Assembly: GCA_017464085.1 (NCBI GenBank) | Contig: JAFUEE010000104.1 | Span: 16,226 to 80,225 of the forward strand | DNA length: 64,000 bases | Direction: 5' to 3' | DNA from: Pseudomonadota bacterium | GTDB taxonomy: Bacteria; Myxococcota_A; Bradymonadia; UBA4248 | In this document: positions 3,192 through 62,278 of the stretch, piece after piece | Position numbering within the stretch: position 1 is the first letter of the stretch | Layout: each line of letters opens with the position of its first letter | Notes under the pieces: generated by a model | The model's database searches: none | The model's input: only the letters and a program-made list of their open reading frames with translations | What the model was told of the DNA's origin: nothing | Translations under genes and position numbers: made by a program

Positions 3192-3515
3192 AAAATCCTC
3201 CAAGGTTAAAGTTTAATCGAATCACTGTAAGCGCTACCATTATTTATTATACACAGAATGCGATTTGATGACCAAATAATTTTCATGAATGTCCTGAATT
3301 TATCGTGCGCTCTCTGCGATTAAAGATTTTGTTCTGAGCGCGAATTTTTGGGAGGGGGAAGACTCCCCCTGCGCGGCTATTTCTGCGAAATACGCCGCTA
3401 CCCCCTCGTCGAATCGCAAAGCGCCTTTTCACAATGTTGTGCGGTCAATTTTGTGATTTGCCATCTAATGCTATAAGAGACTTGCCAGGTGAACTTGTGT
3501 GAGAGGGAGGTGAAG
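3192..3515. promoter_or_regulatory. Divergent intergenic promoter region between the LysM-lysozyme gene (-) and the nucleotidyltransferase gene (+); contains REP-like element A1
   Basis: 324-bp non-coding gap between divergently oriented genes. It contains AT-richer stretches (ttgtgatttgccatctaatgctataag) upstream of the + gene. Confidence 0.35.
3352..3410 (+). repeat. REP-like palindromic element, subfamily A copy A1 (GGGGGAAGACTCCCCC-TGCGCGGC-TAT-hairpin-ATA-CGCCGC-TACCCCCTCG)
   Basis: Near-identical copies lie at 9051..9107 (inverted), 22851..22911, 50107..50162 and 4522..4608. The internal hairpin is tatttctgcgaaata. Confidence 0.8.
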
Positions 3516-4520
3516 ATGGCAAAGACAGGCGGTATTTTATTGTGCGCAGGTTTCGGGTCGCGTCTTGCGCCGCTGACGGAGGTCGTGCCCAAGCCGGCGA
3601 TCCCGTTCTGCGGCGTGCCGATGGCGCATTATGCGCGCGCGGCGCTGGAGCGGGCGGGCGTGGCTGAGATGGGGATGAACGTGCATCATCTGCCGGAGCG
3701 CATGATCGAGGCGATGGATGGCGGCCGCTGGATGGATCGCGCGCGGGAAATGCACATATCCCGAGAGGAAGGCGGTATATTGGGCACGGGCGGCGGTGCT
3801 GCAAGGCTCGCAGGGATGATGCCGGACTGCGACCGTTTTGTGATCTATCACGGGGACGTGCTCTGCGGCGCGGACATTTCTGAGGCGCTTGAATCACATA
3901 TTGCGTCGGGCGCGAAAGTGTCGCTCGTCGTGCTTCCGCGTCCGGAAGCGGTCAGGGAGAACGTCAGGCAGTCGCTCGGCATGATCGGCGTCGTGGATCA
4001 TGAGATCGTCTGTATCCGGGACTGGTATAAAAATGACTGTATCATCGAGTTTTCCCCGCGCTGTTTTAGCGGGATACATATTGTGGAGCGCGGCGTGCTG
4101 GAGGCGATCGCGGATCGGGGCAGCGTCTGTCTGGTGACCGAGGTTTACCGGGAGATGCTTGACCGGGGGGAGGCAATCCACGCCTGCGAGCCGTCCGGTG
4201 CTGTATATTTTGCGGATGTGGGAACGCCGGCAACTTATCTGTCGGCACAGCGCGCGTGCCTGAGAAGCCGTGAATATGGCGACGGTCCGGGGCTGCCTGT
4301 CTTGTGCGAAGGAAAGACGCTGTATGACCGCGGGGACCCGAGCGTATCATTCGGCGCGGTGAATATCGGCGATCAAGTCAGGATAGAGGGCAATGTATGC
4401 CTCAACCCGGGGGCGTCAGTTTCAGGCGATGTGTCCTTGCAGGATGAGATGGTGTGCGCGGAAGGCGGCATCAAGCCGGACGGCGCCTGGATATGCGGTG
4501 GAGCGGCACGTGCGCGATGA
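3516..4520 (+). CDS. Sugar-1-phosphate nucleotidyltransferase (NTP-transferase domain plus C-terminal left-handed beta-helix)
   Basis: RBS GGGAGG 5 nt upstream of ATG 3516. The N-terminal motif GGILLCAGFGSRLAPLT is a variant of G-x-G-x-R-L. The C-terminus has hexapeptide-like repeats (VRIEGNVCLNPGASVSGDVSL). Confidence 0.8.
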   Translation: MAKTGGILLCAGFGSRLAPLTEVVPKPAIPFCGVPMAHYARAALERAGVAEMGMNVHHLPERMIEAMDGGRWMDRAREMHISREEGGILGTGGGAARLAGMMPDCDRFVIYHGDVLCGADISEALESHIASGAKVSLVVLPRPEAVRENVRQSLGMIGVVDHEIVCIRDWYKNDCIIEFSPRCFSGIHIVERGVLEAIADRGSVCLVTEVYREMLDRGEAIHACEPSGAVYFADVGTPATYLSAQRACLRSREYGDGPGLPVLCEGKTLYDRGDPSVSFGAVNIGDQVRIEGNVCLNPGASVSGDVSLQDEMVCAEGGIKPDGAWICGGAARAR

Positions 4521-4521
4521 G

Positions 4522-4608
4522 CGCGGCGTATTTGCAACGCCAAATAGCCGCGCGGGGGTAGCGGCGTATTTGCAACGCCAAATAGCCGCGCAGGGGGCGT
4601 TGCCCCCT
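4522..4608 (-). repeat. REP-like element subfamily A, about 1.5 tandem copies (A2), abutting the stop codon of the nucleotidyltransferase gene
   Basis: gcggcgtatttgcaacgccaaatagccgcgc occurs twice, followed by gggggcgttgccccc; it lies between convergent genes. Confidence 0.75.
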
Positions 4609-4652
4609 GAAACAAAAACAGCTTGTAGTGTCTGCGAGTCGCCGACTGGGTG

Positions 4653-5495
4653 TTATTTTTCGAGTGCTTCTTCGAGCATGCTGACGAGCGATTCGACATC
4701 GAAGGTGCTCTGAATTTTGTGGCCGTTGAGGAAGAAGGTCGGCGTGGATTCGACGCCGTTCGTGAGGCCTTCCTTTTTGGCATCGACGACTGAGGCGCGC
4801 ACGGCGGCATCGCGCATGAGCGCGTCGAATTTTTGAGGGTCGGCGCCGATGCTTGCGGCCCATTCGTTCATTCTTTCGAGGGAGAAATCGTCAAAATTCT
4901 CGTAGGACTTGAGGAGGTAGGGCCACGCGAGGCCGAGTTTTGCAGCGGCTTCGACGGCGATGGCGGCCTGGCTTGAATTTTCGTGTGATTTGATCGGGAA
5001 GAGCCGGAGATTGACGGCAATCTTGTCTTTGAACGATGAGTTTTCGAGCGCGTGAATGAGCTTAGGGACGTGTTTCGAGCAGTAAGGGCAGCGTCCGCAT
5101 AGATAGACGGAGAGGACGACTTTTGCATTTGGATTTCCCCAGACGTGTTCGGGAGAAAGGGAGATTTTTGCGGGCGGCAGGATGGAGGCCATGACGAGTG
5201 CGCGCTGATCCAGCGCGTGCTTGATTTCTTCGGTTGTTTTTCCGGATTTAGCGAGCCTGCATGTTTCGTCCGCGAGGCGGCTCGCGAGTTTGCAGGGCTT
5301 TGCGGCCTGGAGGCATTTTTCGATTGTGTCGTCGCAGCAGTCATAGGGGTAGGCGGAGCGCATGACGCTCTGTGCCGTCGCTTTGGCATCTCCCGCGAGG
5401 GCATCGCATGCGGCAGTCTGGGCGACTGCTTGCGCGGAGAAGAGCATTGAGGCGGCGATTATCAAAGAGTTCAGGGATTTCATAGGCTTCACCAT
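4653..5495 (-). CDS. DsbA-family thiol:disulfide oxidoreductase (thioredoxin fold, CPYC active site) with signal peptide and a Cys-rich N-terminal extension
   Basis: N-terminus MKSLNSLIIAASMLFSAQAVA is signal-like. The CxxC motif sits within VYLCGRCPYCSKHVPKL. The C-terminus TPTFFLNGHKI is typical of DsbA-like proteins. An alternative start is at 5483. Confidence 0.75.
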   Translation of the reverse strand: MVKPMKSLNSLIIAASMLFSAQAVAQTAACDALAGDAKATAQSVMRSAYPYDCCDDTIEKCLQAAKPCKLASRLADETCRLAKSGKTTEEIKHALDQRALVMASILPPAKISLSPEHVWGNPNAKVVLSVYLCGRCPYCSKHVPKLIHALENSSFKDKIAVNLRLFPIKSHENSSQAAIAVEAAAKLGLAWPYLLKSYENFDDFSLERMNEWAASIGADPQKFDALMRDAAVRASVVDAKKEGLTNGVESTPTFFLNGHKIQSTFDVESLVSMLEEALEK

Positions 5496-5558
5496 CTGTG
5501 TCGGGGTATTGCCCGGAAAGTCAGGGCGATCAGATATTTAGCGAATCAGCGTGAAAAA

Positions 5559-8015: not shown

Positions 8016-8066
8016 GATTTCAACTGTTTTGGGGCGTATGTGATGCGAATTTTGGGGGAGAATAAA

Positions 8067-8903: not shown

Positions 8904-9314
8904 AGCGAAATTCCTGGAATTTTAATGATATGCATAGCTCTGAAAGCGTATCCAGAGCAGACCGGTTTTATTCCAAACAGGTATATGATTCAAGCATTCG
9001 CGCGCGGCATCCTGGACTATTGTGTGAGGTTTTATGAAATATGAAACGTCGAGGGGGTAGCGGCGTATTTCGCAGAAATAGCCGCGCAGGGGGAGTCTTC
9101 CCCCCCCATACAAAAAAGAAAAGTTATCAAGCGTAACCCGTGAAGGGCCGGCCGGAGCGAGTTTAAGTCCGTGAGATAAGGCGCTTGTGCGTGCAAGAAA
9201 ACTGAATGTTGTGAGTCGGTATGGGGCAATAAAAAATTGTTCGCTCTTGAATTATGATGGTTTGCGAGTAAAAGGGTGAGACGGAGTGCTGTTTATGGGC
9301 TGTCAGGAGGTGTT
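8904..9314. promoter_or_regulatory. Divergent promoter region between pdxK (-) and the Cys-rich lipoprotein gene (+); contains REP-like element A3
   Basis: 411-bp non-coding gap with AT-rich segments (ttgaattatgatggtttgcgagtaaaag). An AGGAGG RBS sits at 9305..9310. Confidence 0.35.
9051..9107 (-). repeat. REP-like element subfamily A copy A3 (reverse orientation)
   Basis: gagggggtagcggcgtatttcgcagaaatagccgcgcagggggagtcttccccc is the exact reverse complement of the A1 core. Confidence 0.85.
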
Positions 9315-12300
9315 ATGCGACGGTTGGGATTATGTCTTGCGTGTTGTTTGGTCTTGAATGCCTGTTCGGAAGCGGAGCTGACATGCGCGGATAATACCCG
9401 TAAATGTACGGATGACCATCAAGGAATCCTTCGTTGCGTGGGCGGTGCCTGGGAATGGGCGGAGATGTGCTATAATGACACCGTGTGCGATGACAACAAG
9501 TTTATCTGTGTCCAGGATCCGGATGCGTGCGTGGAAGGGGCGCGCAGATGTTCGAACGACCTGCGGAGGGTGGAAGTCTGCATGGGTGGCAGCTGGGCTC
9601 AGGAACGTGAGTGTTCCGGGACTGAATATTGCGATTCGAACCAGCTCGCGTGCATCACGCCTACGAGCGCTCCGGCTTGTGTCCCGGGAAGTTTTCAGTG
9701 TGTCAACAATGTGATCATGCGCTGCGAGGGCATGGGATGGTCACAGTTTCAGACATGCGCATCGCCTCTGAGGTGCGATGCAGCGAGCGGGACTTGCGTG
9801 AGGGATCAGGAATGCTCTCCGGGTACGAAAAAATGCGATGAGGATCTGAGCCGCACGCTGGTGTGCGCGGATGGCTTCTGGACGCTCGGTCAGTCGTGCG
9901 ATGGCGGGCAATGCGACCAGGCGACGATCGAATGCGCCGTGGGATGTACAGAAGGGGATAAAAAGTGCAGCCCGGGGAAAGACAGCGTGCTCAAGTGCAG
10001 CGGCAATCAGTGGATTTCTGAACAGGCATGCGGCGCTTCGGCATATTGCAATGACCAGAAAGCAGCCTGCGTGGATTTGCCGGTCTGTGTCGAGCACTCG
10101 GCATCCTGCGACCTGAGCGGCGGAAGCGTGAAGGAATGCATCGATGGCAAGTGGCAGACGACGCCATGCACGTCAGGCAGGACGTGCGTGAACGGCAAAT
10201 GCATCGCGACCCTGACGAATGTATGCACGCTCGGGGTCACGGAATGCAAGGACAACAATATCGTCCGATGCGTCGGGGGCATCCCGGAGACGTCGTCGTG
10301 CGGCGATCAGGTCTGCATGGTCAGGGGCGGCAAAGCCGTATGTGAATCACATGTGTGCGATGACGGGGATTCGGCATGTGTATCCGCGACCAGGAAAAAG
10401 ACATGCGAGCAGAACGAATGGCGCGAGATTTCGTGCGGGAGCGGCTACCAGTGTGATGCCGGAAATGGGGAATGTGTCCTGACCGTGTGTACGGAAGGTG
10501 CGATGCGCTGTTCGAACAACGCTGCCGAGAAATGCGTCAATAATGCCTGGCAGGTCGTCAAGGCGTGCGGCTCGGACAACTGCGAGGTCAAGGGCGGGGT
10601 GGCGTCGTGCCAGACAGTCTCTTCGTGCCAGGCGGGGGCTAAGAAATGCAATGGCAATGTCGTGGAGACTTGTTCCGGCAATAAATACACGCAGAGCCAG
10701 GTGTGTGACAGCGCCACGCAGATCTGCAGCGCTTCGGGGACGAACGCTTCGTGTGTGGCGCGTGTCTGTACGGAAGGCGCGTACAAATGCGAAGGTTCGG
10801 CGCTGAAATTCTGCAAGGACAATGTGTGGGTGACCTCGCAGACGTGCTCGGGGGACAAGCCTCTGTGCGATGCGTCCAAGTCGGCCTGCGTGGCCAGGGT
10901 GTGCGAAGAAGGCGCGTTGAAGTGCAGCGGGACGGGCAAGAGCCTGATGGTCTGCAAGGGCAATGCCTGGAAGACGCAGACGGAGTGCTACAAGTCGGGC
11001 AGCACCTGTGTGGTCCGCGCCGGCAAGGCCGCCTGTGAGGCAAAGGTGTGCACGGATGGCGTGACCTGCACGGGCAATACGCTCCGAGTCTGCAGCGGCA
11101 ATGCCTATATCGTCGAGAATGCATGCCTGAACACGGAGACCTGCAGCGTGGAAAGCGCGTCCTGTGAAGCCAATCCCGAATGCGCGTCCGGGGAATATAA
11201 GTGCGAGGGCTCGACACTGTATATGTGCTCTCCGGCGCGTCAGTGGCAGTCGAAGAATACATGCGTGAGCCCGGAAATCTGCGACGCGTCGTCCAAAAAA
11301 TGCGTCGATACGTCGGTGTGCTCGGCCGGAAGCTATTACTGTGACGGCCAGGTGCTCAAAAAGTGTTCGGGCGGCCAGTGGGCGACCGAAGAGACTTGCG
11401 ATATCACATATAGTTGTAATGCGGACAAGAAGGCATGCGTCCTCAAGCCTGTCTGTACGGATGGCGAATACTCGTGCAATGGCAAGACGCCGAGGACTTG
11501 CCAGGGGGGCCAGTGGAAAGACGGCAATCCGTGTTCGGCATCGCAGACATGCAGCGCGTCGCTCAAAAAATGTGTCGAATGCGATGAAAATGATTTCCAG
11601 TGCAGCGGCCAGACGCTTCAGAAATGCGTCTCCGGTGCCTGGGTCACTCATGAAAATTGCTCGTCCGGGCAGACATGCAATGCCAATCTGGAGATGTGTG
11701 TCGAGTGCAGCGGTGACATCAGCCAGTGCAGCGGCCAGACACTGCTGTCGTGCGTGGATTACCACTGGAAGACCGAAAAGGAGTGCGACAATGCCAGTTA
11801 TTGCGATGCATCTCAGAAGAAATGCATCAAGAAAGACGTGTGCACAAATGGCGAATATGCATGCGTGAACAACAGCCTCAATATCTGTACCAATGGCCAG
11901 TGGCAGGAAAAAGAGTCATGCACGGCGGAGATGAATTGTGATGCAAACGCAAGGAAATGCGTGCTCAAGCCCGTCTGCATGCAAGGGGAGGCTGTGTGTG
12001 ACGGCAACAGCCTGAAGACATGTGATGCATCGGGGCAGTGGGCGGTCAATGACTGCGGCATGGATGCGCTCTGCGTGACCGCGAATGCGTCGGCGCAGTG
12101 TGTGTCCAAGATGACGCTGCCCACGTGGTGCAACACGCAGCATGTCAGGGATGACCGCGACCAGGGGTATGGGCGCGTGCTTCTGCCAGACGGCGTCAAG
12201 CCCGAAGATATTTCCGCGCATTTCGTGTGCGGCGATGTGCAGCATCCGGTCAGTTCCTGGACATACGGCAGTGCGGCTGTATATAACAAGGATTGCGATG

Positions 12301-12959
12301 ACTGCGGCAACAACATCGAGTTCATGAGTTATTCGGTGTCGGCGCCTGCGGGCACATATCGCTGCGCGTTTACGTTCGATTTTGGGCCTCAGACCATCGC
12401 CTGCCCGGCGAACAATGATGGGAATGATGCGATTGCGCCGATCGTCTTGAGCGATTCGACACAGCTGACATCCGCTCAGACGAAGGAGATTACAGTCCTT
12501 GCGCCGTCAGAAGATGCGCCGACATGGTGTTATTTCAAGCATTTTGATGAGCCTGGCCAGAATGGATTCCAGGGCACCTGGCGGGCATACGGCAGGATTC
12601 TTCCGCCTGGCCTTGCGACGCCTGCGCAGATCACAGCCCGTCTGATCTGTGGAGCTTCCGATGTGCCTGCAGCGAACTGGACCGTCATGCGCGAAGCGGA
12701 GCAGAATTTGTTCTGCCCTGGTAATGGCTATGAGGCTTGTGGCGCTAACAATCTGGAGTATATGAGCGCGCCTCTGATCGACAATGCGCATATTTTGGAG
12801 CCTGGCAGTTACAGCTGCGCGTTCCGCTTTGATGTTGGCGGCAAGTCTTATGTCTGCTCGACTTATCGCGATGCCTCGAATACAGGCGGGCAGCCGGTTT
12901 TGCTTGTGCCGGGGAAAATTCTCACAAGTGCGGAATCTTGGGGGATCACTGTTCAGTAA
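9315..12959 (+). CDS. Cysteine-rich repeat lipoprotein: about 20 tandem 40-45-aa six-Cys modules followed by a duplicated ~150-aa C-terminal domain
   Basis: AGGAGG RBS lies 4 nt before ATG 9315. Signal and lipobox are LVLNACS. A module of the form C-x-EG-x-x-KC-x-G-x-x-L-x-x-C-x-x-x-x-W-x6-C-x6-C-x5-6-C repeats throughout. The C-terminus has two copies of a domain beginning PTWC. Confidence 0.8.
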   Translation: MRRLGLCLACCLVLNACSEAELTCADNTRKCTDDHQGILRCVGGAWEWAEMCYNDTVCDDNKFICVQDPDACVEGARRCSNDLRRVEVCMGGSWAQERECSGTEYCDSNQLACITPTSAPACVPGSFQCVNNVIMRCEGMGWSQFQTCASPLRCDAASGTCVRDQECSPGTKKCDEDLSRTLVCADGFWTLGQSCDGGQCDQATIECAVGCTEGDKKCSPGKDSVLKCSGNQWISEQACGASAYCNDQKAACVDLPVCVEHSASCDLSGGSVKECIDGKWQTTPCTSGRTCVNGKCIATLTNVCTLGVTECKDNNIVRCVGGIPETSSCGDQVCMVRGGKAVCESHVCDDGDSACVSATRKKTCEQNEWREISCGSGYQCDAGNGECVLTVCTEGAMRCSNNAAEKCVNNAWQVVKACGSDNCEVKGGVASCQTVSSCQAGAKKCNGNVVETCSGNKYTQSQVCDSATQICSASGTNASCVARVCTEGAYKCEGSALKFCKDNVWVTSQTCSGDKPLCDASKSACVARVCEEGALKCSGTGKSLMVCKGNAWKTQTECYKSGSTCVVRAGKAACEAKVCTDGVTCTGNTLRVCSGNAYIVENACLNTETCSVESASCEANPECASGEYKCEGSTLYMCSPARQWQSKNTCVSPEICDASSKKCVDTSVCSAGSYYCDGQVLKKCSGGQWATEETCDITYSCNADKKACVLKPVCTDGEYSCNGKTPRTCQGGQWKDGNPCSASQTCSASLKKCVECDENDFQCSGQTLQKCVSGAWVTHENCSSGQTCNANLEMCVECSGDISQCSGQTLLSCVDYHWKTEKECDNASYCDASQKKCIKKDVCTNGEYACVNNSLNICTNGQWQEKESCTAEMNCDANARKCVLKPVCMQGEAVCDGNSLKTCDASGQWAVNDCGMDALCVTANASAQCVSKMTLPTWCNTQHVRDDRDQGYGRVLLPDGVKPEDISAHFVCGDVQHPVSSWTYGSAAVYNKDCDDCGNNIEFMSYSVSAPAGTYRCAFTFDFGPQTIACPANNDGNDAIAPIVLSDSTQLTSAQTKEITVLAPSEDAPTWCYFKHFDEPGQNGFQGTWRAYGRILPPGLATPAQITARLICGASDVPAANWTVMREAEQNLFCPGNGYEACGANNLEYMSAPLIDNAHILEPGSYSCAFRFDVGGKSYVCSTYRDASNTGGQPVLLVPGKILTSAESWGITVQ

Positions 12960-12963
12960 TTTT

Positions 12964-13042
12964 CCATGCCTTGCGCTTTCGGCGCTACGGCATGGCTCGC
13001 CTGCTATCGCCTTTGGCGATACGCGGCGCTTGTTTTTTTGAT
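12964..13042 (+). terminator. Hairpin cluster and T-run 3' of the Cys-rich lipoprotein gene; includes REP-like hairpin C1 tatcgcctttggcgata
   Basis: ccatgcc...ggcatgg inverted repeat encloses gcgctttcggcgc. This is followed by tatcgcctttggcgata and then cttgttttttt. Confidence 0.45.
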
Positions 13043-13107
13043 GCCGATGCATCTGCTGTCGGCTCAGTTCGATGGCCTCATAGGCCGCTTTTTTGTGGGA
13101 TATAACG

Positions 13108-13788: not shown

Positions 13789-13927
13789 CAGGTAGACTGG
13801 ATGCATGTCGTTCTGGCGGCGATGATTGGCGCTTGACGATTTTGTACAGTCTGTATAGTAATTAAGTTGCTATTTTTAAGAACTGAATCATCCTGATGAG
13901 GATGAATAAGTAATTGAAGGCTGTAAA

Positions 13928-16246
13928 GTGGCACTGGATAAAGAGAAAATTTTAGCGTCTGCCCAGAAGTACGAGGACAAGTCACAGTATGAGAAGGCGA
14001 TCAGGGAATACCAGAAGATCATCGAGATCGAGCCTAAGAACGAGCGTGTCCTTTTAAATACCGCGTCCTGCTATGACAATTTGGGAAAACGTCAGGAAGC
14101 AGCGCGCTATTATTCCAGAGCCGCCGGTTGCTATCGGACAAAAGGGGCGTATCAGAAAGCGGTAGCGGTGTTCAAGCAGGCGCAGAAATGCCTTCCTGAT
14201 GATGACGTGATCGCGATGGATATGGCCGAGCTCTATACGGCATTAGGCCTTCAGCACGAAGCCATCGGACAGCTTGAGAAATGTCTCGCGCGCAGTGAGC
14301 GGGCAAACGATCGACGGGCCGTGACAAAGATCCTGCAGACGATGGTCAAGGCCGACAGCGAGAATATCCAGACGCGCACGCGCTATGCTCAGGTCATACT
14401 TGAGGATGGTGATGTCGAGGGGGCAACGAGGCAGTACACGCTGGCGCTTGCGCAGCTGCTCAGTAAAGAGCGCTATGTCGATTATATTCAGACATCGCGG
14501 GAATATCTGAAAATCGTTCCCAATGATGCCGATGTGCTTCAGGAGCTCGGAAAAATTTATATCCGTATGGAGCGCTATAATGATGCGCTTGCGCTTCTTT
14601 CCCCGATTCGTTCCGAGGAACGCTCCCCGCAGATACGCGAGCTGTTTATCAATTGCTATATCAAGCTGCACAGGACGACGGATGCTGGGGAAGAGCTCAA
14701 GGCGCTTGCGCGTCAATATGAGGCGGAGGGCGGTCGTTCGGATCTCATTGAGGATGCTTGGCAGCGTGCGCGGAAGCTTCTCCCGAATGATCCTGAAGTT
14801 TCTGAATTTTTTGGTGACGAGCCCCCGTTGCTCTCAGACAGTGCGCTCAACATCGTCAGTCCGGGCATTGAGACAGACCGGACGAATGGTGGTGATTCTC
14901 TGTCGCAGGTGGAGCGCATGCTCGCACAGAAATTCAGCCATTCCATGGAAGCCTATCGTCAGGGAAGGATAAGCGAAGCCAAAACGCTATGCCTGCAGAT
15001 TATCGATTCTGACGAGCAATATATGCCAGCTTTGCAGCTGCTCTCGCAGATCTGTGAAAATGACGGGGATAACCTGACGCTGGCTCAAATTGAGCGCAAA
15101 CTTGCGAAGGCTGTCTTTGATTCAGATCCGGATGCAGCGGTGCGTCATGTCCTCAAAGCGGAAAAATGTACGCCCGGAGCTTGGGAAAATTTCAATCTTT
15201 TGCTCGTCTTTGGATTAGAACCGTCTCGATATGGCCTGAAGGCGCCGAACAGTTTTACGGCGTCTTCTTCCGCAAGGATTGCTGTTTCTCCAGCCCCGAG
15301 CCCGGTGCCTGCCAAACGCCCTGGGCCGCCTCCGCTTCCCGGAAAGCGTACGAAGCCTGCAGTTGATATCTCTCTGGTGGAACGCGCGTTTCAAAATCAG
15401 TCAGCCGGGGAGCGCTATGGTGACGGCTCGAATGCGCCGCATGTCGATGGCAACGAAATCACGCGAAACCCTGCTCTGGATTATATTCCGGAAGACGTTG
15501 AGGATGCGTTTGATGATGCTTTCGACGATTTGCTCAAAACCCCGACGGAACCTGTTCAGGCGGTGTATAGTGAGATGCCTGAATGGATGAATGCATCCAA
15601 TAGCGTTGCTCAGAGAGACGGCGCTCATGAGGATACGTCTCTGAATGAGGCCATTCAGAGACGTGCAGCTCAGACGGCTGTTTCTGGACCTCAGAGCGGT
15701 ATTCCGCTTTCGAAGCCAGGAATCCCGCTTTCGCCTCGCGCACAAGGCATTCCGCTTGCTCAGCGTCCGCAGGCTGTTCCGCTTACGCAGCGCTCGCAGT
15801 CCGGCATTCCGCTCACGCAGCGCTCGCAGCCCGGCATTCCGCTCACGCAGCGCTCGCAGCCCGGCATTCCGCTCACGCAGCGCTCGCAGCCCGGCATTCC
15901 GCTCACGCAGCGCTCGCAGCCCGGCATTCCGCTTGCACAGCGCCCGCAGGCTGTTCCGCTCACGCAGCGCTCGCAGCCCGGCATTCCGCTCACGCAGCGC
16001 TCGCAGCCCGGCATTCCGCTTGCCCAGCCTGCGCCTCCGGTCGCTGAGCCGGCGCCAACTGTCCCTTTGATGGAGGCTGTGGGGATTCCTGATTCTGAAC
16101 GCCATCGGGTTACGGAGGCGATACAGGAAATAGATTTTTATGCTTCTCTGATGCTGATGGATGATGCGCATAATTTGTTGCAGAAATTGATCGACGAATT
16201 TGGGGATGTCGATATCATTCATGAAGCAAAGCTCCGTCTAGGGTGA
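13928..16246 (+). CDS. TPR-repeat protein with a C-terminal Pro/Gln-rich tandem decapeptide array (GIPLTQRSQP xN)
   Basis: GTG start with GAAGG 7 nt upstream. The N-terminal 400 aa have TPR-like periodicity (YEKAIREYQKIIEIEPKNERVLLNTASCYDNLGKRQEA). The C-terminus has an in-frame 30-bp repeat array. Confidence 0.75.
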   Translation: MALDKEKILASAQKYEDKSQYEKAIREYQKIIEIEPKNERVLLNTASCYDNLGKRQEAARYYSRAAGCYRTKGAYQKAVAVFKQAQKCLPDDDVIAMDMAELYTALGLQHEAIGQLEKCLARSERANDRRAVTKILQTMVKADSENIQTRTRYAQVILEDGDVEGATRQYTLALAQLLSKERYVDYIQTSREYLKIVPNDADVLQELGKIYIRMERYNDALALLSPIRSEERSPQIRELFINCYIKLHRTTDAGEELKALARQYEAEGGRSDLIEDAWQRARKLLPNDPEVSEFFGDEPPLLSDSALNIVSPGIETDRTNGGDSLSQVERMLAQKFSHSMEAYRQGRISEAKTLCLQIIDSDEQYMPALQLLSQICENDGDNLTLAQIERKLAKAVFDSDPDAAVRHVLKAEKCTPGAWENFNLLLVFGLEPSRYGLKAPNSFTASSSARIAVSPAPSPVPAKRPGPPPLPGKRTKPAVDISLVERAFQNQSAGERYGDGSNAPHVDGNEITRNPALDYIPEDVEDAFDDAFDDLLKTPTEPVQAVYSEMPEWMNASNSVAQRDGAHEDTSLNEAIQRRAAQTAVSGPQSGIPLSKPGIPLSPRAQGIPLAQRPQAVPLTQRSQSGIPLTQRSQPGIPLTQRSQPGIPLTQRSQPGIPLTQRSQPGIPLAQRPQAVPLTQRSQPGIPLTQRSQPGIPLAQPAPPVAEPAPTVPLMEAVGIPDSERHRVTEAIQEIDFYASLMLMDDAHNLLQKLIDEFGDVDIIHEAKLRLG
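15772..16020 (+). repeat. In-frame 30-bp coding tandem repeat, about 8 copies, encoding QRSQPGIPLT
   Basis: ccggcattccgctcacgcagcgctcgcagc is repeated with minor variants. Confidence 0.85.
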
Positions 16247-16265: not shown

Positions 16266-16293
16266 AGCCCGGCTGAAAAGCCGGGCTTTTTTG
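16266..16293 (+). terminator. Canonical rho-independent terminator (GCCCGGC tgaaaa GCCGGGC TTTTTT)
   Basis: Perfect 7-bp GC stem, 6-nt loop and T6 run, 20 nt after the TPR gene stop. Confidence 0.8.
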
Positions 16294-16366: not shown

Positions 16367-16526
16367 GCGCCGCGTATCGGCAGAAAGCCGAAAGCGGCGT
16401 TGCGCAGGCGTATGGCGGCAGCCATAGCCGCGCCTGTGAAAATAAGCGCGCCGCGTATCGGCAGAAAGCCGAGAGCGGCGTTGCGCAGGCGTATGGCGAC
16501 AGCCATAGCTGCGCTTGCAAAAGAAT
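16367..16526. repeat. Intergenic 80-bp direct repeat, 2 copies, each containing REP-like hairpins (gcgtatcgg...; tatggcggcagccata)
   Basis: gcgccgcgtatcggcagaaagccga[a/g]agcggcgttgcgcaggcgtatggcg[g/a]cagccatagc[c/t]gcgc is repeated head-to-tail between convergent genes. The ORFs on both strands here are repeat artefacts. Confidence 0.8.
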
Positions 16527-16588: not shown

Positions 16589-19500
16589 TCATTCTCCGCC
16601 AGGCTTCTGCTCCTCAGGCTTCTGCTCCTCAGGCTTCTGCTCCTCAGGTTTCTGATCATCTTTCTTATCATCATTGTTTTGGGCTTTGTCGATGCCATAG
16701 ACCTTGATGTTGTCGAGACGCATCATCTTATAGCCTTCGTCGGTGGCGTTCGTGTCTTCAATGCCCTTGTCGTTGACGATGATCGGCCAGATGTTGTTCT
16801 CTGCGACGGGATCGAGTGTGAGTTTGAGCCATTCGCCTTCCTTGGTGGCGTTCTTCTTATCGTTGATCACGATGGTGCGACCGTCGCCAAAGACGCTCAG
16901 TTCGATCTTGGTGATTTCGAATGCGTCGGTCTTTGTTGTCAGTGAGAAATGACATTTGTCTTTGCCGCCGACTGCGAGATCTGTGCCGAGCGCGCCTACG
17001 ACGCCGTCTTCGCCGGCGACGATCTTGAGCTTGGCGCTCTCGCAGCTGAAAACAAATTTGGCCGCAGCAGCATTCTTGGAGTCAGTGTCTGGCTTGATGT
17101 CAGCCTTGTCGATTGGTGAAGATTTCTTGGTATCCTTATTCCAATACTGATCGAATGTGCTCCAGGATGCGAGCAGTTCGGGGAGCGAGGTGGGCGTAGG
17201 CGCGGGTTTGTCGGTTTCATCCGTGCAGCCCTTGAGCTCTTTGTTCATCAGGCAGACGGGCGAATCGCATTTGCCTTTGCATGCAGTTTTGACCTGGGCT
17301 TCGAAGCATTTTGCGCTATCTTCGTCACTCAGCGGGGCTGACTGATCTACTGGCTTTTCGCAAATATTCACATCCCAGCTTTCGACGGCGGAGCCACCGG
17401 AGCAGACGACGATCGTGTCGTTGTCTTGGCAAGCTTTGTCTTTGCAATGCGTCAGGCATTCCTCGTTGGTCACGCCGTAGCCATTGTTGATGATTTCGGA
17501 GTTGAGGTCACACGTAGGATCGCCGCATGTCGTAAAGGCTTCGCAGTTTTTTTTGCATTCATTGTTGGCAGAAAGGATGATCTGCGTGGCTGTGGCGCCG
17601 GCGTATTCGGTATTGAATTTGCCTTCTTCTGTGCAGACAACGACGCCAGCCCCCTGGCAGCCTGTTTTGTCGCAACGGTTGTTTTTGGCCCAGCTTGAAG
17701 GATCGCTGAACGAACCGCCCAGACATGCCTGGTTAGTGTGATCTTTGATCTGCGCTCCTTCCTTGGCCTCTTTGAGGACCTTTCGGCAAACGCTGTTTTT
17801 GGCCTTGAATTCATCGAGTGATTTGCCGCCACTCAGTTCCATCGTCGGCTTGTCGTTTTCATCTTTATAAGCGATCCATGCGCCGCCGATGGTGTCTTCA
17901 GGTTTTTTGCCGTCGGCCTTGGTCTCTCCGAGAGAACCGGTGCCTGTCCAGCTGCCTTTGACGATCTGCTGCGCGACACAGCCAATGCCTGCGGCCGGGG
18001 CAACGCAGAGCTTGCCGCGCTGGAATTCGCCAGTGCCATCAAGCGTCAGGTTGAGAGACGCATATTTGCTGACTGCGAAGGAAACGGTCTGGCCGGAAAG
18101 CCAATTCAGGCTCAGCTCGCAGAACGTGGAGAGATCGACACTGCCAAGAAGCGGCAACGAGATATTGCCGAGCTTGGAGCAGTCGAGAATATTGGCAAAA
18201 CTGAGGTTGCCGCTGTCGTCGATTGCGCCGATGAATTTGCCGATGACCTGATAGATGAACTCCCCATAAGTGAGATTGAGCGAGAACTTGGTGATCGCAA
18301 GCTGATCGATGCCGTTCGTGAGCTTGGCTTCGGTCCATTTGCCTTCGACGATATTGCCCGGAAGCTCGAGTTTCTTGTCGCCGGTAAACGGAATAAGGGC
18401 ACCGTTATATTTGGCACTGCCTTTAAACTTGCCGGAGTTGCCGTCTTTCTCGAGGGTGAGGTCGCCAGTGAGTGTCAGGTACTGAACGCTGTCGAACACT
18501 TTGCAGAGCTGTTCGGCGATGGCATCCGCGCTGAGGTATTTGTCGAGCAAGGATTTGATGCCCTTTCTGGCCAGCGGCGCGATCTTTTTGCCGATGCTGT
18601 TGATGTGCGTGTAATAATAGAACTTGGCACAGGTGCAGTCGCACTTCGTGTAAAGCTTTTTAAGGCAATCTTTGTCTTCTTTGCCTTTATCATCGAAACA
18701 ATCTTTGTATTTCTGGCCGGAGTTGATCTCGCAGATGCTTTCAAGTTTCGAGACATTGCTGCCATCGGACGGCATACATTTGTTTTTCTTCTGGGAATTT
18801 TCGACACATTTAGTTGTATTGGTATTGTCGCCATCAAAGAAAACATAAGTATCGAGCTCCTCCATGACTTTTTTGGCCGGATCGGCATCGAGGAATTCCT
18901 CGTATTTCGTCATGATCTTGTCGATGCTCTCTTTGACTTTTGAGCCGTCTTTCATCAGAGGCCCGAGGTCGAAGAGGGATTCGGTCTTGTAGCTTTCAGC
19001 AAAGCTGAGCGGGATTTCGGAGAGAAGCACTTTGACATCCATGCGGCGAACTGGCGCGCATTTGCACTTGCCGTCTTTGTCTTTCTGGCTGTTCTTGCAT
19101 GTCGTCAGTCGTTCCGAGTCGTCGCAGGTATTCGGCGTCGTCGGAGAGCCGAAGCGGTTCATGGCGCTGCAGCCGAACACGAGCGGGGAACTGCCGGAAT
19201 CACCAACGGCAAACACGATGTACTTGTCTTTGTGGTTATCGAGGATCAGCTCTTTGGGATAATATTTATTATCGCCTGCTTCTGTCACTTTTTCGAGATC
19301 GCAGATATGGAGCGAATCTTGGGGCTCTGCTTTCAGGCAGTTTGTTTTTCGCGAAGATTCGTTTGCGACGAGGAAGTTCTCGCTGCAGCTGTGATCATCG
19401 GAGGACAGGATGTAATAGCTGACGCCGTTGTAAGCGAGTTTCTGCACGTTCGTGCCGTCGGCTTCGAGCTTGATATGGTTGATTTCCGTGACAGAGGGCG

Positions 19501-22711: not shown

Positions 22712-22850
22712 ATAGCCTCTCCTTGCACTCGTGTTAAAAAAGGCAAAAAACAAGTCAGATTCTACGATTTTTGCGCTTTTCTGGCAAGTGAGTTACTATA
22801 TTTTGTTTACATGTATTTCAAGCCTGAGAGAATTTTGGCTTTTTTGTGGA

Positions 22851-22911
22851 GGGGGAAGACTCCCCCTGCGCGGCTATTCCTTGCCGGGGCAAGGAATACG
22901 CCGCTACCCCC
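22851..22911 (+). repeat. REP-like element subfamily A copy A4 (variant inner hairpin tattccttgccggggcaaggaata)
   Basis: It shares the gggggaagactccccctgcgcggc...tacgccgctaccccc frame with A1 and A5. The inner stem-loop is replaced by a longer perfect palindrome. Confidence 0.8.
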
Positions 22912-22936
22912 ACTCGAATCGGATGCGCGTCGTCGG

Positions 22937-27960: not shown

Positions 27961-28156
27961 TGGCCGCTATCCCTCAGGGATATGCGGCTTTTTGCATTTT
28001 GCTGAATCTGTCATATCGGTCATGGTGTGGACAATGCGTATCAGATGTGGCAAAAGGGCCGGGGCGTATGGAGTGAAACGAAATAGCCACGGCGCGCGGG
28101 CGCATGACCGCGTGCGGTCAAAGCCGGCGCATAAAATTTAAAAAAATGAGATAGAG

Positions 28157-32439: not shown

Positions 32440-32548
32440 ATTGCCGCTTTCGCCTTTGGCGATACGCGGCATGATTGGCGCGTCCTATCGGCCTGCGGCC
32501 AATACGTCCGCGCAGCGGATTTCGTCGCGTATCGCAGATAGCGGCGAA
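32440..32548. repeat. Cluster of REP-like hairpins, subfamily C (tcgcctttggcga; tatcggcctgcggccaata; tatcgcagata)
   Basis: Three successive TAT-stem-loop-ATA hairpins bracketed by GCGGC-like flanks. They lie between the esterase (-) 3' end and the skp start. Confidence 0.7.
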
Positions 32549-32647
32549 ACAAACGCGCCGTATGCCGCAGGCATAGGCGCGTCCATGTTAAAGGGTTGCG
32601 GGCGTTCATCCGTTCGGCAAGGCTTGCCGGGCGAGGCGCCTGTTTGT

Positions 32648-41028: not shown

Positions 41029-41592
41029 TTCTGCTCTCCTGAGAATAGAATTGAATGAGGCCGTTTAGGGCCAAAAGAAAGACGGCGTATTGTATTACTT
41101 TTTTACAGTTTGCTCAATTGATTTAAGGATAATGCGCGATATTGGCTGATTTTTGGGCATGGGATATTTCCCAAGGCTGTGCGGCCGGCGTATCGCTTTG
41201 CGATAGCCGGCCGTTGCGTCGCGTGCCGAAGGCAGCGACGCGCCAGAAATGCGAATTTTTGTGATTACGATGTCCAGCGGGAGAGTGGAAACTCATGCGG
41301 AAATTTGATCATTGTGAAGTGATGCTTTGTGGACGGCGCGGATGGCAGCGAAAAAAGAGTGGCCGTGGTTCGCGGTTTGGGCTTGATTTTTGTGAAGGCG
41401 TGATAATTTTCGTGCGCCGCCATCCGTATGATGTTGCGGATGATGCTTTTTATGAGACGAAAAACTGATAATCTGTTATGAATAATAGTTCGGACAGACA
41501 TTGGCGCTGAGCCGGTTCTGGCTGCCAACAACGATACTGGATATTTGCGCCGACGGCGCGCCAATATTCACCCGTGCATACAGGAGACAATC
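41029..41592. promoter_or_regulatory. 564-bp divergent promoter region between the two TPR genes; contains REP-like palindrome C3
   Basis: Long non-coding gap with AT-rich core (tgatgctttttatgagacgaaaaactgataatctgttatgaataatag). The only ORF here (99 aa) is low-complexity and unsupported. Confidence 0.4.
41181..41244. repeat. REP-like element subfamily C copy C3 (GCGGCCGGCGTATCGCTTTGCGATAGCCGGCC plus second hairpin)
   Basis: 28-mer nearly identical to copy C4 at 51468. A second imperfect hairpin is cgtcgcgtgccgaaggcagcgacg. Confidence 0.75.
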
Positions 41593-50002: not shown

Positions 50003-50106
50003 AATCGAGACCTGTATGCATGGTATTTCAATGCTGCTTGTGGGCAAATGGGGATGCCCAGGGAGTGAGGGTCTGTATCGAGGGCGTTTGAGGACGCTGG
50101 GCATTT

Positions 50107-50162
50107 TGGCTTGGGTGGGGGAAGACTCCCCCTTCGCGGCTATTTGCTTTGCAAATACGCCG
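50107..50162 (+). repeat. REP-like element subfamily A copy A5 (inner hairpin tatttgctttgcaaata)
   Basis: gggggaagactcccccttcgcggctatttgctttgcaaatacgccgctaccccctcg lies between dnaB and the M20 amidohydrolase gene. Confidence 0.8.
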
Positions 50163-50249
50163 CTACCCCCTCGATTTTGTAGTGATTTGCGGGGCGTATA
50201 ACAAGCTTCTGTGGTTGTGGCAAGCCGGAAGTGGGAGTTGCCGTGAGCC

Positions 50250-51386: not shown

Positions 51387-51693
51387 AGATGTGCCATTTG
51401 TTGTAACTAGGCGGAATGCACGGATTGCATTTCGGAGAAGGATCTGGAGGGTCGAAACGGTGTGGCGGCGGCGTATCGCTTGCGATAGCCGGCGCGGCGA
51501 AGCCGTATCGCCGTCAGGCGATAGGCGAGTCAAAATAGATGGAATAATTCCGATTGGGCAAATGTTTTAACGACAGAAATTCTGATATGCCATATAGGGG
51601 TATATTAGAAGACATGTAGTTATTTTTCTTGCATCGTAGGTCTGTTTGAGTAAAAATGCCCAGGGGGACTAGAGCATAGGAGGCATTATTTTT
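51387..51693. promoter_or_regulatory. Upstream region of the RND efflux operon containing REP-like palindrome C4 (candidate operator)
   Basis: 307-bp gap. A GTATCGCTTGCGATAG inverted repeat lies at ~51473..51488. An AT-rich promoter-like stretch is at 51540..51690. An AGGAGG RBS is at 51678. Confidence 0.4.
51465..51526. repeat. REP-like element subfamily C copy C4 (GGCGGCGTATCGCTTGCGATAGCCGGCG plus second hairpin tatcgccgtcaggcgata)
   Basis: Near-identical to copy C3 at 41181. Confidence 0.75.
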
Positions 51694-52983: not shown

Positions 52984-53203
52984 GATCACGTCCGGGCGCA
53001 GCAGGCCCTTTGACTGACTCGGGGCAGTCCATCAAAGGGTGGGCAGACCCGAGGGCCGAGGCATTCAGATGAGGCGCGCAGAAATTGAGTTTGCGCGCCT
53101 TTTTAGATTTTTGCGCAAGCCGGGCGCGGTGTTCCTTCCGTATTAATATTGAATAAGTGCGCTTGTCTGTGGACGGTGCGCTTTAATCCATATAGAGGCC
53201 ATA

Positions 53204-56524: not shown

Positions 56525-56619
56525 TTAAATGCGTTCCGGCATGAAATAGAAGCCAGATGACTTTGCGTTCCATGCCGGAGAAGCTTATTGACCTTCGAGC
56601 TCAATGGAGTTCAAGATAT

Positions 56620-58344: not shown

Positions 58345-58402
58345 AAGAGCCTTCAATCAGGCTTGAAGCGCTGCAGTCCGATGGGCTGTGGCGCTTTTTT
58401 TT

Positions 58403-58476
58403 GCGCGCCGCTATCCGCGTGAACGCGGATACGCGCCGCCTTTCGGCCTATTGCCGCTTTGCGGCAATACGGCGCG
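58403..58476. repeat. REP-like element subfamily B copy B1: two hairpins tatccgcgtgaacgcggata and tattgccgctttgcggcaata
   Basis: Near-identical to copy B2 at 62209..62278. It lies 3' of the GLUG lipoprotein gene. Confidence 0.85.
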
Positions 58477-58657
58477 TTATTTCATATCAACTGCGGGAAG
58501 CAATCGCACGATGCGACAAATCAGCACTGCGGGAAGCAATCGCGCGCAACGAAAGATGATGCAGGATGGCTTGAGGCAGTCGCGTCAGGAAATGCTCAGA
58601 CGCAGAGCTGCGGCAGCGCATCGGCGCATGTTTTGCCGCAGGCTTCGCGAGAACTGG

Positions 58658-61600: not shown

Positions 61601-62128
61601 GCCGTGGCTGCCGCAGTTATAGATGTCGTCTTCTTCGCAGATGCCTTTGTATAGATGCTGGTCAGGGCTACATTCTGTCAGTGCATTGCATTTTCCTGCA
61701 TTGACCGTGTACCCTTCTTGGCAGCTGTCTGCATGACATTTGCCAGACCGGCATGAGCCTGTTTCCCAGCCCGGGATTTCGTGCGCGCAGCTGTAATCAT
61801 GTTGTCCGCAGTTTTCAAGATCGTCCGGCTCGCAGTGCCCGTTGTAGATATGTTCGTCCTGTTCGCATTGGATGGCAGTGCAGTAAAATAGGCCACTGTC
61901 GTCTTGCGCGCAAACCGGCACATCAGACGGGCACATGCCTGTACTGAAGTTTTTCTCGTAATTTTGGCTGTCGCAAGATTCGGCTGTGCAATCTTGAGAC
62001 TTGATATAGCTGAGTTTGCCGGCCTGGTCTTTGGGCGGGCATGGGTCGCCATAGCGCTCGATATCGTCCAGGGCGCAGCTGTTGAGGATAACTATGCTCG
62101 ATATATAAAACAGAATTCTTTTATGCAT
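58658..62128 (-). CDS. Lipoprotein with N-terminal Cys-rich ~48-aa repeats (HxYNGxCEPDDxxNCGSHGNxC...) and C-terminal GLUG-motif repeat domain
   Basis: GGAG RBS. Signal and lipobox are ILNSCALDD. At least 6 Cys-rich modules. The C-terminal 450 aa carry repeated GG[LIM][IAV]G motifs (VGGLAGKA, GGMIGMI, GGIIGML, GGLIGQG, GGLIGIS, GGLAGSF, GGLIGEQ, GGLVGYI) typical of the GLUG motif family. Confidence 0.8.
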   Translation of the reverse strand: MHKRILFYISSIVILNSCALDDIERYGDPCPPKDQAGKLSYIKSQDCTAESCDSQNYEKNFSTGMCPSDVPVCAQDDSGLFYCTAIQCEQDEHIYNGHCEPDDLENCGQHDYSCAHEIPGWETGSCRSGKCHADSCQEGYTVNAGKCNALTECSPDQHLYKGICEEDDIYNCGSHGNVCQNMISGWIDGECRNSLCSATACDSAKGYDLFNGKCEARIGCDIGMHYYNGQCEPDDLNNCGSHGNICTERAGWISGGCELVNSHKECQSDSECSGGVCRENECFKTECVVTKCESIYEIKDGKCVPRTECDAGQHLYQNQCEPDSIDNCGEHNLQCKNIIQGWAFGTCTDMTCVPLSCAAGYHLSGKTCEQDSPSACGDPPSPCAPGQLCSNGECKDDCDSSMIRCMRDSYTAVCIDPQSDNTFCGADAQCQNYKTCASGQNCLNGQCIQTSCPNSSETLCANACVNLYAADAQNCGSCGYVCANHPQSHATSNTCLKGKCQFQCEAGYTNCGTPDLPNCIPTSNFNTDSNNCGSCGHTCAAKDEFCQAGTCVKSTCNNSCLYNNQCINETNHCGISCTDCSALSNVSSSTCDSSGQCKINSCNASAHLYNNTCEPDSQANCGSHDNACAALITGWANGTCTDKQCRATACKASYHLYNNTCEPDSDSHCGSHGNACAHGETCQNKTCKCPGGYTTINNVKAACISSAEDFLSFRNAINEGKNWPSDNDNATFALTRNIDLGTQNSWVGTGTGAHPFSGTILGNDKTLSGTLKCNAEYCGIFGLIKAESSNKAKFQDLKLSVSISSSYDTVGGLAGKATHAEFSNITVSGTVSGKNKVGGMIGMIENGSVSNVTSSASVTATAQISGGIIGMLSGTSVTNSSASSKTVAASGIAGGLIGQGGGGSISDSHASGNVNGASRNYYGGLIGISSGLVITRSYATCILSAMGTCGGLAGSFTGGSIQASYYNSNITCGGASGGLIGEQKTGTSIIKSGAFGNISGYPAGGLVGYIATNTQSISIQNSFAVARLSGDTKSGLVGTSDASHSSGSTLNCNWIASVFTNSQNTAAVCYGSQTFSQTAPNFVYNQTYQTATDKNYTSTSSLFTLSNNTPTTNGTAMLNALKANCSNGNWLSKTCSIPGYGTYTLPMPGITPNNCH

Positions 62129-62208
62129 ACAAAACTCCGATAAGCCCCCCCGAATGGCGGAGAATAGTCAGCTTTTGTGTTCATATCAATGGGAAAACAG
62201 GCGCTTGG

Positions 62209-62278
62209 CGCGCCGCTATCCGCGTGAACGCGGATACGCGCCGCCTTTCGGCCTATTGCCGATTTGCGGCAATACGGC
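62209..62278. repeat. REP-like element subfamily B copy B2
   Basis: cgccgctatccgcgtgaacgcggatacgcgccgcctttcggcctattgccgatttgcggcaatacggc lies 3' of the partial paralogue gene. Confidence 0.85.

Follow-up and report, generated by a model that had tools for sequence, protein, structure and literature searches.

The 64-kb stretch of DNA analysed here (positions 16,226 to 80,225 of contig JAFUEE010000104.1, referred to as the window) has a GC content of 55%, and about 9–10% of it is intergenic. Its genes are those of an ordinary chromosome, including dnaB, panB, panC, ribA, an AcrB/OEP/HlyD efflux set, OmpH, and TPR proteins, together with genes for several giant secreted proteins. Pfam scans of the window proteins detected no transposase, integrase, or recombinase gene. 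Near-identical contigs (99.2–100%) have been seen in metagenome assemblies only. The subject of this report is a family of short bulged hairpins in the intergenic regions of the window and of related genomes. A first-pass annotation had likened the family to repetitive extragenic palindromes (REPs) and bacterial interspersed mosaic elements (BIMEs). The family is real. Its members are extragenic palindromes of REP type confined to a lineage of uncultured gut bacteria. The family belongs to the known REP class, of which it is a previously undescribed and unusually variable member, and it is not a new kind of system.

Copies were located by a strict scan for hairpins closed by TAT..ATA that have a 1-nt bulge and an outer stem of 4 bp or more without mismatches. 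The scan returned 11 copies in the window, all of them intergenic, compared with 0.33 per whole-window dinucleotide shuffle and 0.04 per intergenic-only shuffle. When all 64 closing triplets were scanned in the same window, TAT ranked first with 11 copies, against at most six for any other. When a perfect inner stem of 5 bp or more is required, the window has 15 singly bulged hairpins; ten of these show the combination G-bulge/TAT or, as its reverse complement, C-bulge/ATA, and one more has a T bulge. The same combination and its reverse complement also dominate the singly bulged hairpins in related DNA. Chance or low complexity as the origin of the hairpins is ruled out by the shuffles and the triplet control.

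A covariance model (R1), built from 22 gapless copies (alignment A1), produced 27 hits in the window (E ≤ 1), corresponding to 22 distinct intergenic units and a single weak hit without the motif in coding DNA, at 30961. With three units missed by the model, the window contains about 25 units in 13 intergenic regions, or about one unit per 2.5 kb. The first-pass annotation was right about intergenic repeats and too low in its count of about 12 loci, having missed 27962, 28059 (degenerate), 32520, 32553, 41216, and 51502; its nine example strings and the GGGGGAAGACTCCCCC and TACCCCCTCG motifs are all present where it had placed them. When folded as single-stranded DNA, every copy tested forms the predicted bulged hairpin (Z-scores -1.9 to -6.0).

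A unit is an imperfect palindrome of 25–45 nt, or up to about 75 nt with nested hairpins. The lower stem is GC-rich, 3–9 bp long, and ends in a C:G pair in 62 of 65 simple units. This pair is the only fixed part of the outer stem, which differs in sequence at almost every simple unit and is not always the GCGGC/GCCGC bracket described in the first pass. The fixed core comprises nine positions, namely the C:G pair, an extrahelical G on the 5' arm, and the pairs T:A, A:T, and T:A (consensus CGTAT...ATAG). Of the 150 bulged strict hits in the related loci, 133 have G or its complement C as the bulged base; these loci are 85 contigs (599 kb) taken from the matches listed by a scan of species-representative genomes with the A-type frame (see below). 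The bulge flips with orientation, as had been pointed out, being G 5' of TAT on one strand or C 3' of ATA on the other, and a copy is here said to be in F orientation when it is read with its bulged G on the 5' arm. That the closing pairs are always TAT...ATA is nearly correct: the middle pair is broken in 16367 and 16448 (TAT..AAA / TAT..AGA) and in 32442 (TTT..ATA), unit 41216 has TGCC..GGCA, and unit 27962 has an A/T bulge.

The upper stem (3–12 bp) is free in sequence, with 112 distinct inner sequences among 143 copies, and only small sets of inner sequences recur, for example TGGCGAATGCCA, found four times in one metagenome-assembled genome (MAG). The loops are mostly of 3 nt (GCA, AAC, GAA, TTT, AAA), and the loop-closing pair is C:G in 75%. 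Triloops of the C-GNA-G type are classic, very stable DNA mini-hairpins, while functional RNAs favour GNRA or UNCG tetraloops. The combination of triloop and C:G closing pair is therefore a hint of structure at the DNA level. In alignment A1, nine of the 13 pairs vary on both sides and none on one side only, which bears out the earlier suggestion of a conserved fold frame with compensatory variation in the stems. The cells of A1 are paired in 94%, versus 25–44% when the partner is slid by 1–3 columns. Because the A1 sequences were chosen as well-paired, it is the diversity of pair types, and not the percentage paired, that is informative.

The three subfamilies distinguished in the first pass exist. 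Simple units occur singly or in head-to-tail arrays of two to four, with linkers of 1–11 nt. Adjacent units are almost always head-to-tail, both in the window (16367 ×4, 51466 ×2, 58403 ×2, 62209 ×2, 4521/4553, and 32520/32553) and in related loci L014, L029, L044, L060, and L087; mixed orientations are found in the 32442 cluster only. The subfamily B doublet (about 70 nt) is present twice with unrelated flanks, 3' of each of two GLUG-domain genes as the first-pass annotation had it, and a two-unit block of L029 (1873–1935) recurs at 3674–3738.

The A-type has the layout GGGG-GTAG-[unit]-G(T/C)AG-[GGGGG-loop-CCCCC]-C/A-rich tail, with the consensus ...AGA-GGGGG-TA-GCGGC-G-TAT-[variable]-ATA-GCCGC-G-YA-GGGGG-AGACTT-CCCCC-nCCCnAAAAA. 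GTAG lies directly against the core stem, sharing one base with its first pair, and a further tag stands at the GGGGG/CCCCC (G5) hairpin (GTAG in 40/84, GCAG in 34/84; GAAG also occurs). The A-type therefore represents two tagged palindromes in tandem, and G(T/C)AG-tagged tandem hairpins are the REP hallmark. In the five A-types of the window, which form an unbiased sample, the 25 frame bases of the search pattern are identical in 5/5, and the inner hairpins are of four different sequences and lengths. Around A-types, conservation reaches no further than about 10 nt on the upstream side and about 30 nt on the downstream side. An additional hairpin, GCGGGG-loop-CCCCGC, often stands 5' of the A-type in other species. 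The copies in the window are listed in Table 1.

Table 1. Units of the bulged-hairpin family in the window (window coordinates; bits, covariance model score; z, folding Z-score).
Type	Position	Strand	Structure	Setting	Score
A-type	3352..3408	-	GCAG-tagged G5 hairpin 3354-3369; core 3371-3400, inner TTCGCAGAA; GGGGGTAG head	between divergent genes	43.3 bits; z -4.0
Simple unit	4521..4553	+	GCGCGGC-G-TAT-TTGCAACGCCAA-ATA-GCCGCGC	begins right after stop codon of NTP-transferase gene	31.7 bits
A-type	4553..4608	+	core 4559-4591, inner hairpin identical to that of 4521..4553; G5 hairpin variant GGGGGCGTTGCCCCC at 4593-4607	next to unit 4521..4553	
A-type	9050..9106	+	core 9058-9087, inner TTCGCAGAA as in 3352 copy; G5 hairpin 9089-9106		
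Simple unit	12998..13030	-	inner CGCCAAAGGCG; T-run next on + strand	between convergent genes	
Four-unit head-to-tail array	16367..16516	+	16367-16400, 16402-16435, 16448-16481, 16483-16516; duplicated two-unit block	between canonical terminators 16266-16287 (+) and 16553-16533 (-)	
A-type	22849..22912	-	long perfect inner hairpin TCCTTGCCCCGGCAAGGA; G>A in inner stem in strain L001		
Variant unit	27962..27990	-	A bulge (T on + strand); outer stem GCCGC/GCGGC; then T-run on + strand		
Degenerate unit	28059..28092	+	GGC-G-TAT...ATA-GCC frame kept, inner part unpaired		15 bits
Four-unit cluster	32442..32582	mixed	32442-32472 (-), middle pair broken; 32477-32513 (-), outer stem with internal loop; 32520-32549 (+), minimal inner CGCAG; 32553-32582 (+), top model match of window		43.7 bits (32553-32582)
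Simple unit	41182..41213	+	CGGCCGGC-G-TAT-CGCTTTGCG-ATA-GCCGGCCG	between divergent genes	z -5.5
Variant unit	41216..41241	+	7-bp outer stem, bulged G; TGCC/GGCA replaces TAT/ATA		21 bits
A-type	50115..50172	-	inner TTGCAAAGCAA; GAAG-tagged G5 hairpin		z -6.0
Two head-to-tail simple units	51466..51530	+	51466-51494, 51502-51526	between divergent genes	
Subfamily B doublet	58403..58476	-	head-to-tail units 58405-58439, 58445-58475	3' of GLUG gene; begins directly past canonical terminator 58365-58397	
Subfamily B doublet (second)	62209..62280	-	62210-62244, 62250-62279; one substitution	3' of second GLUG gene	

Units are present in 4/6 divergent, 4/6 convergent, and 5 of about 15 co-directional intergenic regions of the window. 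In the convergent regions they lie between, or just past, strong canonical terminators, and a terminator scan called separate canonical sites (16266, 16553, 58365, 53071, and 44828) rather than the units. T-runs stand beside only the units at 12998 and 27962, as well as 16367 and 16448 on the minus strand; unit 27962..27990 may double as a terminator. Intrinsic (Rho-independent) terminators resemble the units in being intergenic GC-rich hairpins, each with its own stem sequence. In contrast, the units have a fixed internal core with a bulge and occur in either orientation, most lack a T-run, and they adjoin, or often lie past, separate canonical terminators. Because the canonical terminators are separate and most units have no T-run, intrinsic termination was rejected as the identity of the units.

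Relative to transcription, the simple units in co-directional regions are oriented 10 F : 12 R, a count that rules out, for these units, an RNA-level element of fixed polarity. The A-type is oriented 9 F : 29 R in co-directional gene pairs and lies 25–80 nt from stop codons, its G5 hairpin being typically a few to a few tens of nt away. The first-pass annotation had also considered a terminator or an RNA-processing site. As a general role this is disfavoured by the nearly even orientation of simple units, the location of many units in divergent promoter regions or past canonical terminators, the scarcity of T-runs, and the use of triloops rather than tetraloops.

Beyond the window, the A-type frame occurs in at least 85 contigs from about 12 MAGs among the matches listed, and among these all A-type contigs belong to gut MAGs (cattle, buffalo, termite, and others), which are labelled Myxococcota, Myxococcales, or 'Proteobacteria bacterium'. 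The covariance model detected 143 units in the 599 kb of related loci and gave no hit in about 83 kb of unrelated, REP-rich metagenome DNA containing REP-associated tyrosine transposase (RAYT) genes. In the related loci, 21% of the units fall inside crude open reading frame (ORF) calls, which cover 87% of that DNA. No Rfam match was obtained over the whole window at gathering scores or at E ≤ 1, nor in four related loci, and a known RNA family is ruled out by these empty results. A full-text literature search for the repeat sequence gave no relevant match. One exact A-type frame is also present, at 2238–2275, on a viral contig of 43 kb (IMG/VR UViG_3300020112_001123), which may be a phage or prophage of the bacterial lineage.

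Comparison of related loci reveals both persistence and change. Among strains L001–L006 (99.2–100% identity), the units differ by four substitutions, three of them in stems, with no gain or loss. In the relative L096/L100, whose NTP-transferase is 74% identical and which is fully syntenic with the window, the two intergenic regions on either side of the NTP-transferase gene each contain an A-type that matches the window copy in place and orientation. The frames of these A-types are essentially identical to those of the window, and the surrounding intergenic DNA is unalignable. In both, the inner hairpin is fully replaced by a long module, GCGCRCAGCC...GGCGAGYAC. Many genomes share this module, in which the mismatches are conserved and one pair is compensatory, and in L096 its loop holds a further nested hairpin. 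The apical part thus changes much faster than the A-type frame. In more distant relatives, R-oriented units are found upstream of the NTP-transferase ortholog: L042 has an A-type there, and L099 has two simple units. A unit with an AT-rich outer stem also lies just past the stop codon of this ortholog in L042. The A-type at 9050 is missing from the orthologous intergenic region of L100, and L076 lacks the 32442 cluster but carries an A-type 3' of OmpH, a position without an A-type in the window. Therefore, occupancy turns over while some sites are long-lived. The two copies of the B doublet, the recurrence of the L029 block, and the presence/absence differences between species are signs of mobility or turnover. 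No pair of empty and filled sites with alignable flanks was recovered between the compared loci; the all-against-all synteny of the 85 related loci provided few usable pairs.

The family has the defining properties of REPs, being a short imperfect palindrome that forms a stem-loop, present in many dispersed copies, and extragenic. The GYAG tag of the REP superfamily is found in the A-type, whose tags match that superfamily (PMC3733652), and not in the simple units. The REP/BIME elements of the GTAG superfamily in E. coli, Pseudomonas, and Stenotrophomonas (Di Nocera et al. 2013, PMC3733652) are likewise short, GC-rich extragenic palindromes of high copy number, with G(T/C)AG at the hairpin foot (as in the A-type only), a strand-defining stem irregularity, an upper part that can vary and be self-complementary, and intergenic clusters. 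In contrast to these, the simple units are untagged, the lower stem is free as well, nearly every copy has its own stems, the arrays are not inverted, and the density in the window is that given above. For the E. coli transposase TnpAREP, GTAG and a bulge in the stem are essential and the upper part of the REP plays a purely structural role (PMC8266576), and the present family looks like this recognition logic pushed to an extreme. The likeness extends to the systems of RAYTs and their REP doublets (REPINs), or REPtrons (Bertels and Rainey 2011; Ton-Hoang, Corneloup et al., PMC8266576), in the tag, the bulge, and the non-specific structural upper half, as well as in vertical persistence within one lineage and in the presence of Y1 genes in at least one genome of the lineage. 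The family differs from these systems in that it has no inverted doublets and no dominant master sequence, and in that no RAYT with inverted units on its flanks was found in the DNA examined, the lone clear RAYT being flanked by another REP type.

The RAYT link envisaged in the first pass is hypothetical. No RAYT or Y1 gene was found in the window by tblastn, with E. coli RayT and then with the RAYT of related locus L014, or by Pfam. The 85 related loci contain one clear RAYT (L014) and one borderline Y1-like gene (L067), both in MAG RGIG464. The L014 protein scores 36 bits with Pfam Y1_Tnp and 67 bits with NCBIfam REP_Tyr_transpos, and its JGI annotation is RayT. Directly 3' of its stop codon lie three F-oriented units. 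On its 5' side lies a different REP, made of GTAC/TATA-GGGCGGGTC-TGA-GACCCGCCC hairpins, and a 52%-identical homologue from another organism (L092 1000–2550) has long GTAG-GGGCGGGTC...GACCCGCCC repeats on both sides. Because the GGGCGGGTC REP occupies the 5' flank of this RAYT and both flanks of the homologue, it seems a likelier partner of the L014 RAYT than the bulged-hairpin units do; the three units are weak evidence, since roughly every second long intergenic region has a unit in it. The L014 and L092 RAYTs with their GGGCGGGTC repeats would constitute a second, classical REP/RAYT pair in the lineage. A metagenome scan with the L014 RAYT returned relatives at most 66% identical (at most 49% over most of the protein) in other organisms, and no bulged-hairpin units stand beside the relatives so returned.

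Several minor observations concern these two loci. In the region of the L014 RAYT (L014 700–1120 and 1120–1635), tandem repeats of about 30 nt, 'TATATGGCTGGGCTTAGAGC', also precede the gene. The borderline Y1-like ORF of L067 (1–993; 232 aa; Pfam Y1_Tnp 23.3 bits versus a cut-off of 23) lies in very AT-rich DNA and is followed by tandem repeats of about 120 nt (L067 1–300), spaced about 120 nt apart and each with a hairpin GGCCGTTCCATGGAACGGCC. The ORF also has an A-type unit about 500 nt upstream of it.

The reading preferred here, with a probability of about 0.6, is that the family is a non-autonomous hairpin element at the DNA level, maintained by a structure-reading enzyme that is probably a Y1 transposase. 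The DNA level is favoured because the simple units are unbiased in orientation relative to transcription, both types are unbiased relative to GC skew, units lie beyond terminators and in divergent regions, the triloops are of the DNA type, and Rfam gives no match even at E ≤ 1. That the enzyme is specifically an HUH/Y1 RAYT encoded elsewhere in the genome is a tentative identification, with somewhat less than an even chance of being correct. Such an enzyme would act on folded single strands, copying or maintaining the units. For recognition it would depend on the flipped-out G with the four neighbouring base pairs and, in the A-type, on the GTAG tag as well, and it would require of the stems only that they pair. 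Only copies with the core and the pairing intact would stay copy-competent, while the stems would diversify through compensatory change, quasipalindrome template-switch correction, and wholesale replacement or nesting of the apical hairpin. The outcome would be a conserved structure with a free sequence. Side effects on neighbouring genes, such as protection of mRNA 3' ends and occasional termination, are possible and are not taken as the reason for the family's existence.

A number of findings weigh against this reading. The stem diversity of the units is far above the pattern known for REPIN populations, in which a dominant master sequence is surrounded by close mutational neighbours. The simple units have no preferred adjacent tetranucleotide and no GTAG-like tag. 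Their head-to-tail arrangement is unlike the inverted dimers of classical REPs, BIMEs, and REPINs, in which head-to-tail dimers are rare (PMC3733652). No cognate RAYT is present in the window; that of L014 falls short of the NCBIfam cut-off (67 versus 80 bits), a different REP, GTA(G/C)-GGGCGGGTC, occupies its 5' flank and both flanks of its homologue, and the three units on its 3' side could be a coincidence. The retention of A-type frames at two orthologous sites while the flanks were scrambled could mean selection at the level of the host. Finally, there is no orientation bias with respect to GC skew, the counts in the related loci and the window being 40:30 for the A-type and 28:30 for simple units. 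Transposition by Y1 enzymes that target the lagging strand might be expected to produce such a bias, and this replication-strand signature of Y1 transposition was not found.

If the units are not copied for their own sake, they may be hairpins that a host protein binds, i.e., structure-defined functional sites each under purifying selection, with the bulged G and the CG/TAT core read on RNA or on extruded DNA. Conceivable roles include protection or processing of mRNA 3' ends, protein-dependent termination, and organisation of the nucleoid or of replication. Nine fixed nucleotides between covarying stems are the pattern of functional structured sites; A-type frames have persisted in place and orientation at 74% protein identity despite diverged flanks, and R-oriented units recur upstream of the NTP-transferase ortholog in two more distant relatives. 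The 29:9 orientation bias of the A-type in co-directional pairs at 25–80 nt from stop codons, and the few units followed by T-runs (12998 and 27962), would also agree with such a role. However, the simple units are unbiased relative to transcription, units occur equally in divergent, convergent, and tandem regions and past strong canonical terminators, and occupancy differs between related species. Near-identical tandem duplications and a doublet at a second locus look like copying rather than independent origin, and the triloop with its C:G closing pair is typical of DNA hairpins. Host selection of this kind is the main rival, supported by positional persistence and by the orientation bias of the A-type, and is somewhat unlikely. 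A broader proposal, that the units are genome-wide sites of folded DNA (or RNA) defined almost purely by structure, with a flipped-out G next to C:G/T:A/A:T/T:A, and neither RAYT cargo nor ordinary REPs, is a little less probable again. Were it true, selection would keep hundreds to thousands of intergenic positions, read by a protein of the lineage's own, with apical loops able to take up nested hairpins, and the sites would be a chromosomal analogue of attC-type structure recognition.

Integron attC sites themselves offer a further comparison, since they too conserve structure over sequence, have an extrahelical base that sets the strand, and vary in the size of the terminal structure. The units could accordingly be folded-DNA recombination sites for a tyrosine recombinase or another non-HUH enzyme, with a conserved basal box and terminal structures that range from a 3-nt loop to nested hairpins. 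This is very improbable. The units have no R/L box consensus (GTTRRRY / RYYYAAC) and are much shorter than attC; the window has no integrase or recombinase gene and no cassette array; and the units are scattered in both orientations, often 1–11 nt apart, with no one-orientation promoterless cassettes between them. Slightly less credible still is the idea that they are pieces of a larger mobile element, such as the ends of miniature inverted-repeat transposable elements (MITEs) or insertion sequences, or remnants of a DUF559 endonuclease cassette. In its favour, an A-type lies inside a block of about 500 nt that is 88–100% identical in L031 and L074, which represent two species, and one viral contig has an A-type. 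Against it stand the narrow limits of conservation around A-types and the rarity of DUF559, which is found in just 3/85 related loci and was rejected as a partner of the units for this reason. The first-pass annotation had allowed for fragments of a single larger element; the window copies instead stand solitary between housekeeping genes, in DNA without a transposase.

The shared block (L031 1–560 / L074 4677–5160) is of some interest in its own right. The neighbouring coding DNA is only about 70–75% identical, and a 45-nt duplication present in L031 only is excluded from the 88–100%. The block contains a small DUF559/Vsr-like ORF, G-rich hairpins (CCCCTCTCC-TTTTT-GGAGAGGGG and GGGGTGAGG), and the A-type unit. 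The block, which may be a mobile DUF559 cassette, lies in L074 in frame within a 1667-aa ORF that resembles a restriction-modification enzyme of type IIG/ISP.

REPs are among the commonest bacterial repeats, and what partner enzymes must recognise in them and why they persist are still debated. The present family adds an uncultured gut lineage labelled Myxococcota to the range of REP-like elements, and its conserved part is down to nine nucleotides around one extrahelical base. The rest is randomised over hundreds of copies in several species, which amounts to a natural mutational scan of recognition determinants. On the reading of a DNA-level element with a structure-reading enzyme, the bulged G, the C:G pair, and TAT/ATA are predicted to be essential, and the stems to need only pairing. 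With no hits in the unrelated DNA scanned, the family also provides a specific marker, combining sequence and structure, for the lineage in metagenomes. It may explain assembly breaks as well, since two orthologous contigs have an end within a unit. The only contig found for a 93%-identical NTP-transferase (L098, 1175 nt) begins within the upstream A-type and stops within the downstream unit, which suggests that the repeats break short-read assemblies of these organisms.

Some other features of the window are noted here. The GC skew on the + strand is strong and positive, being 0.05–0.17 in every 8-kb block, and it is positive in genes of both orientations (0.105 and 0.132). Despite this skew, about 63% of the coding bases lie on the minus strand, the inferred lagging strand. 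Very large ORFs are found at 16589–22753 (2054 aa), 33451–41028 (2525 aa), and 9276–12959 (1227 aa). The 2054-aa and 1227-aa ORFs have no Pfam match, and a metagenome orthologue of the 2525-aa ORF has no Pfam hit on record. These ORFs adjoin genes for other large proteins of the secreted type, with ALK/LTK glycine-rich, GLUG, and LysM plus phage-tail-lysozyme domains. Just downstream of the first subfamily B doublet, an 18-nt direct repeat, ACTGCGGGAAGCAATCGC, is present in two copies with a spacing of 36 nt (58490–58543). Two neighbouring large genes of L100 have in common a leader of about 90 nt, GTCCATAGGCGGCAC..GCCGCCTTGGGTATGTTCGGACTTGAAATCTGTATGTTTGCGAGTAAA, that stands in front of each (14400–14511 and 17650–17769). 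The window counterpart, upstream of the gene for the 1227-aa protein, keeps only TTTGCGAGTAAA (9250–9275). The L100 leader may be a shared 5' regulatory element.

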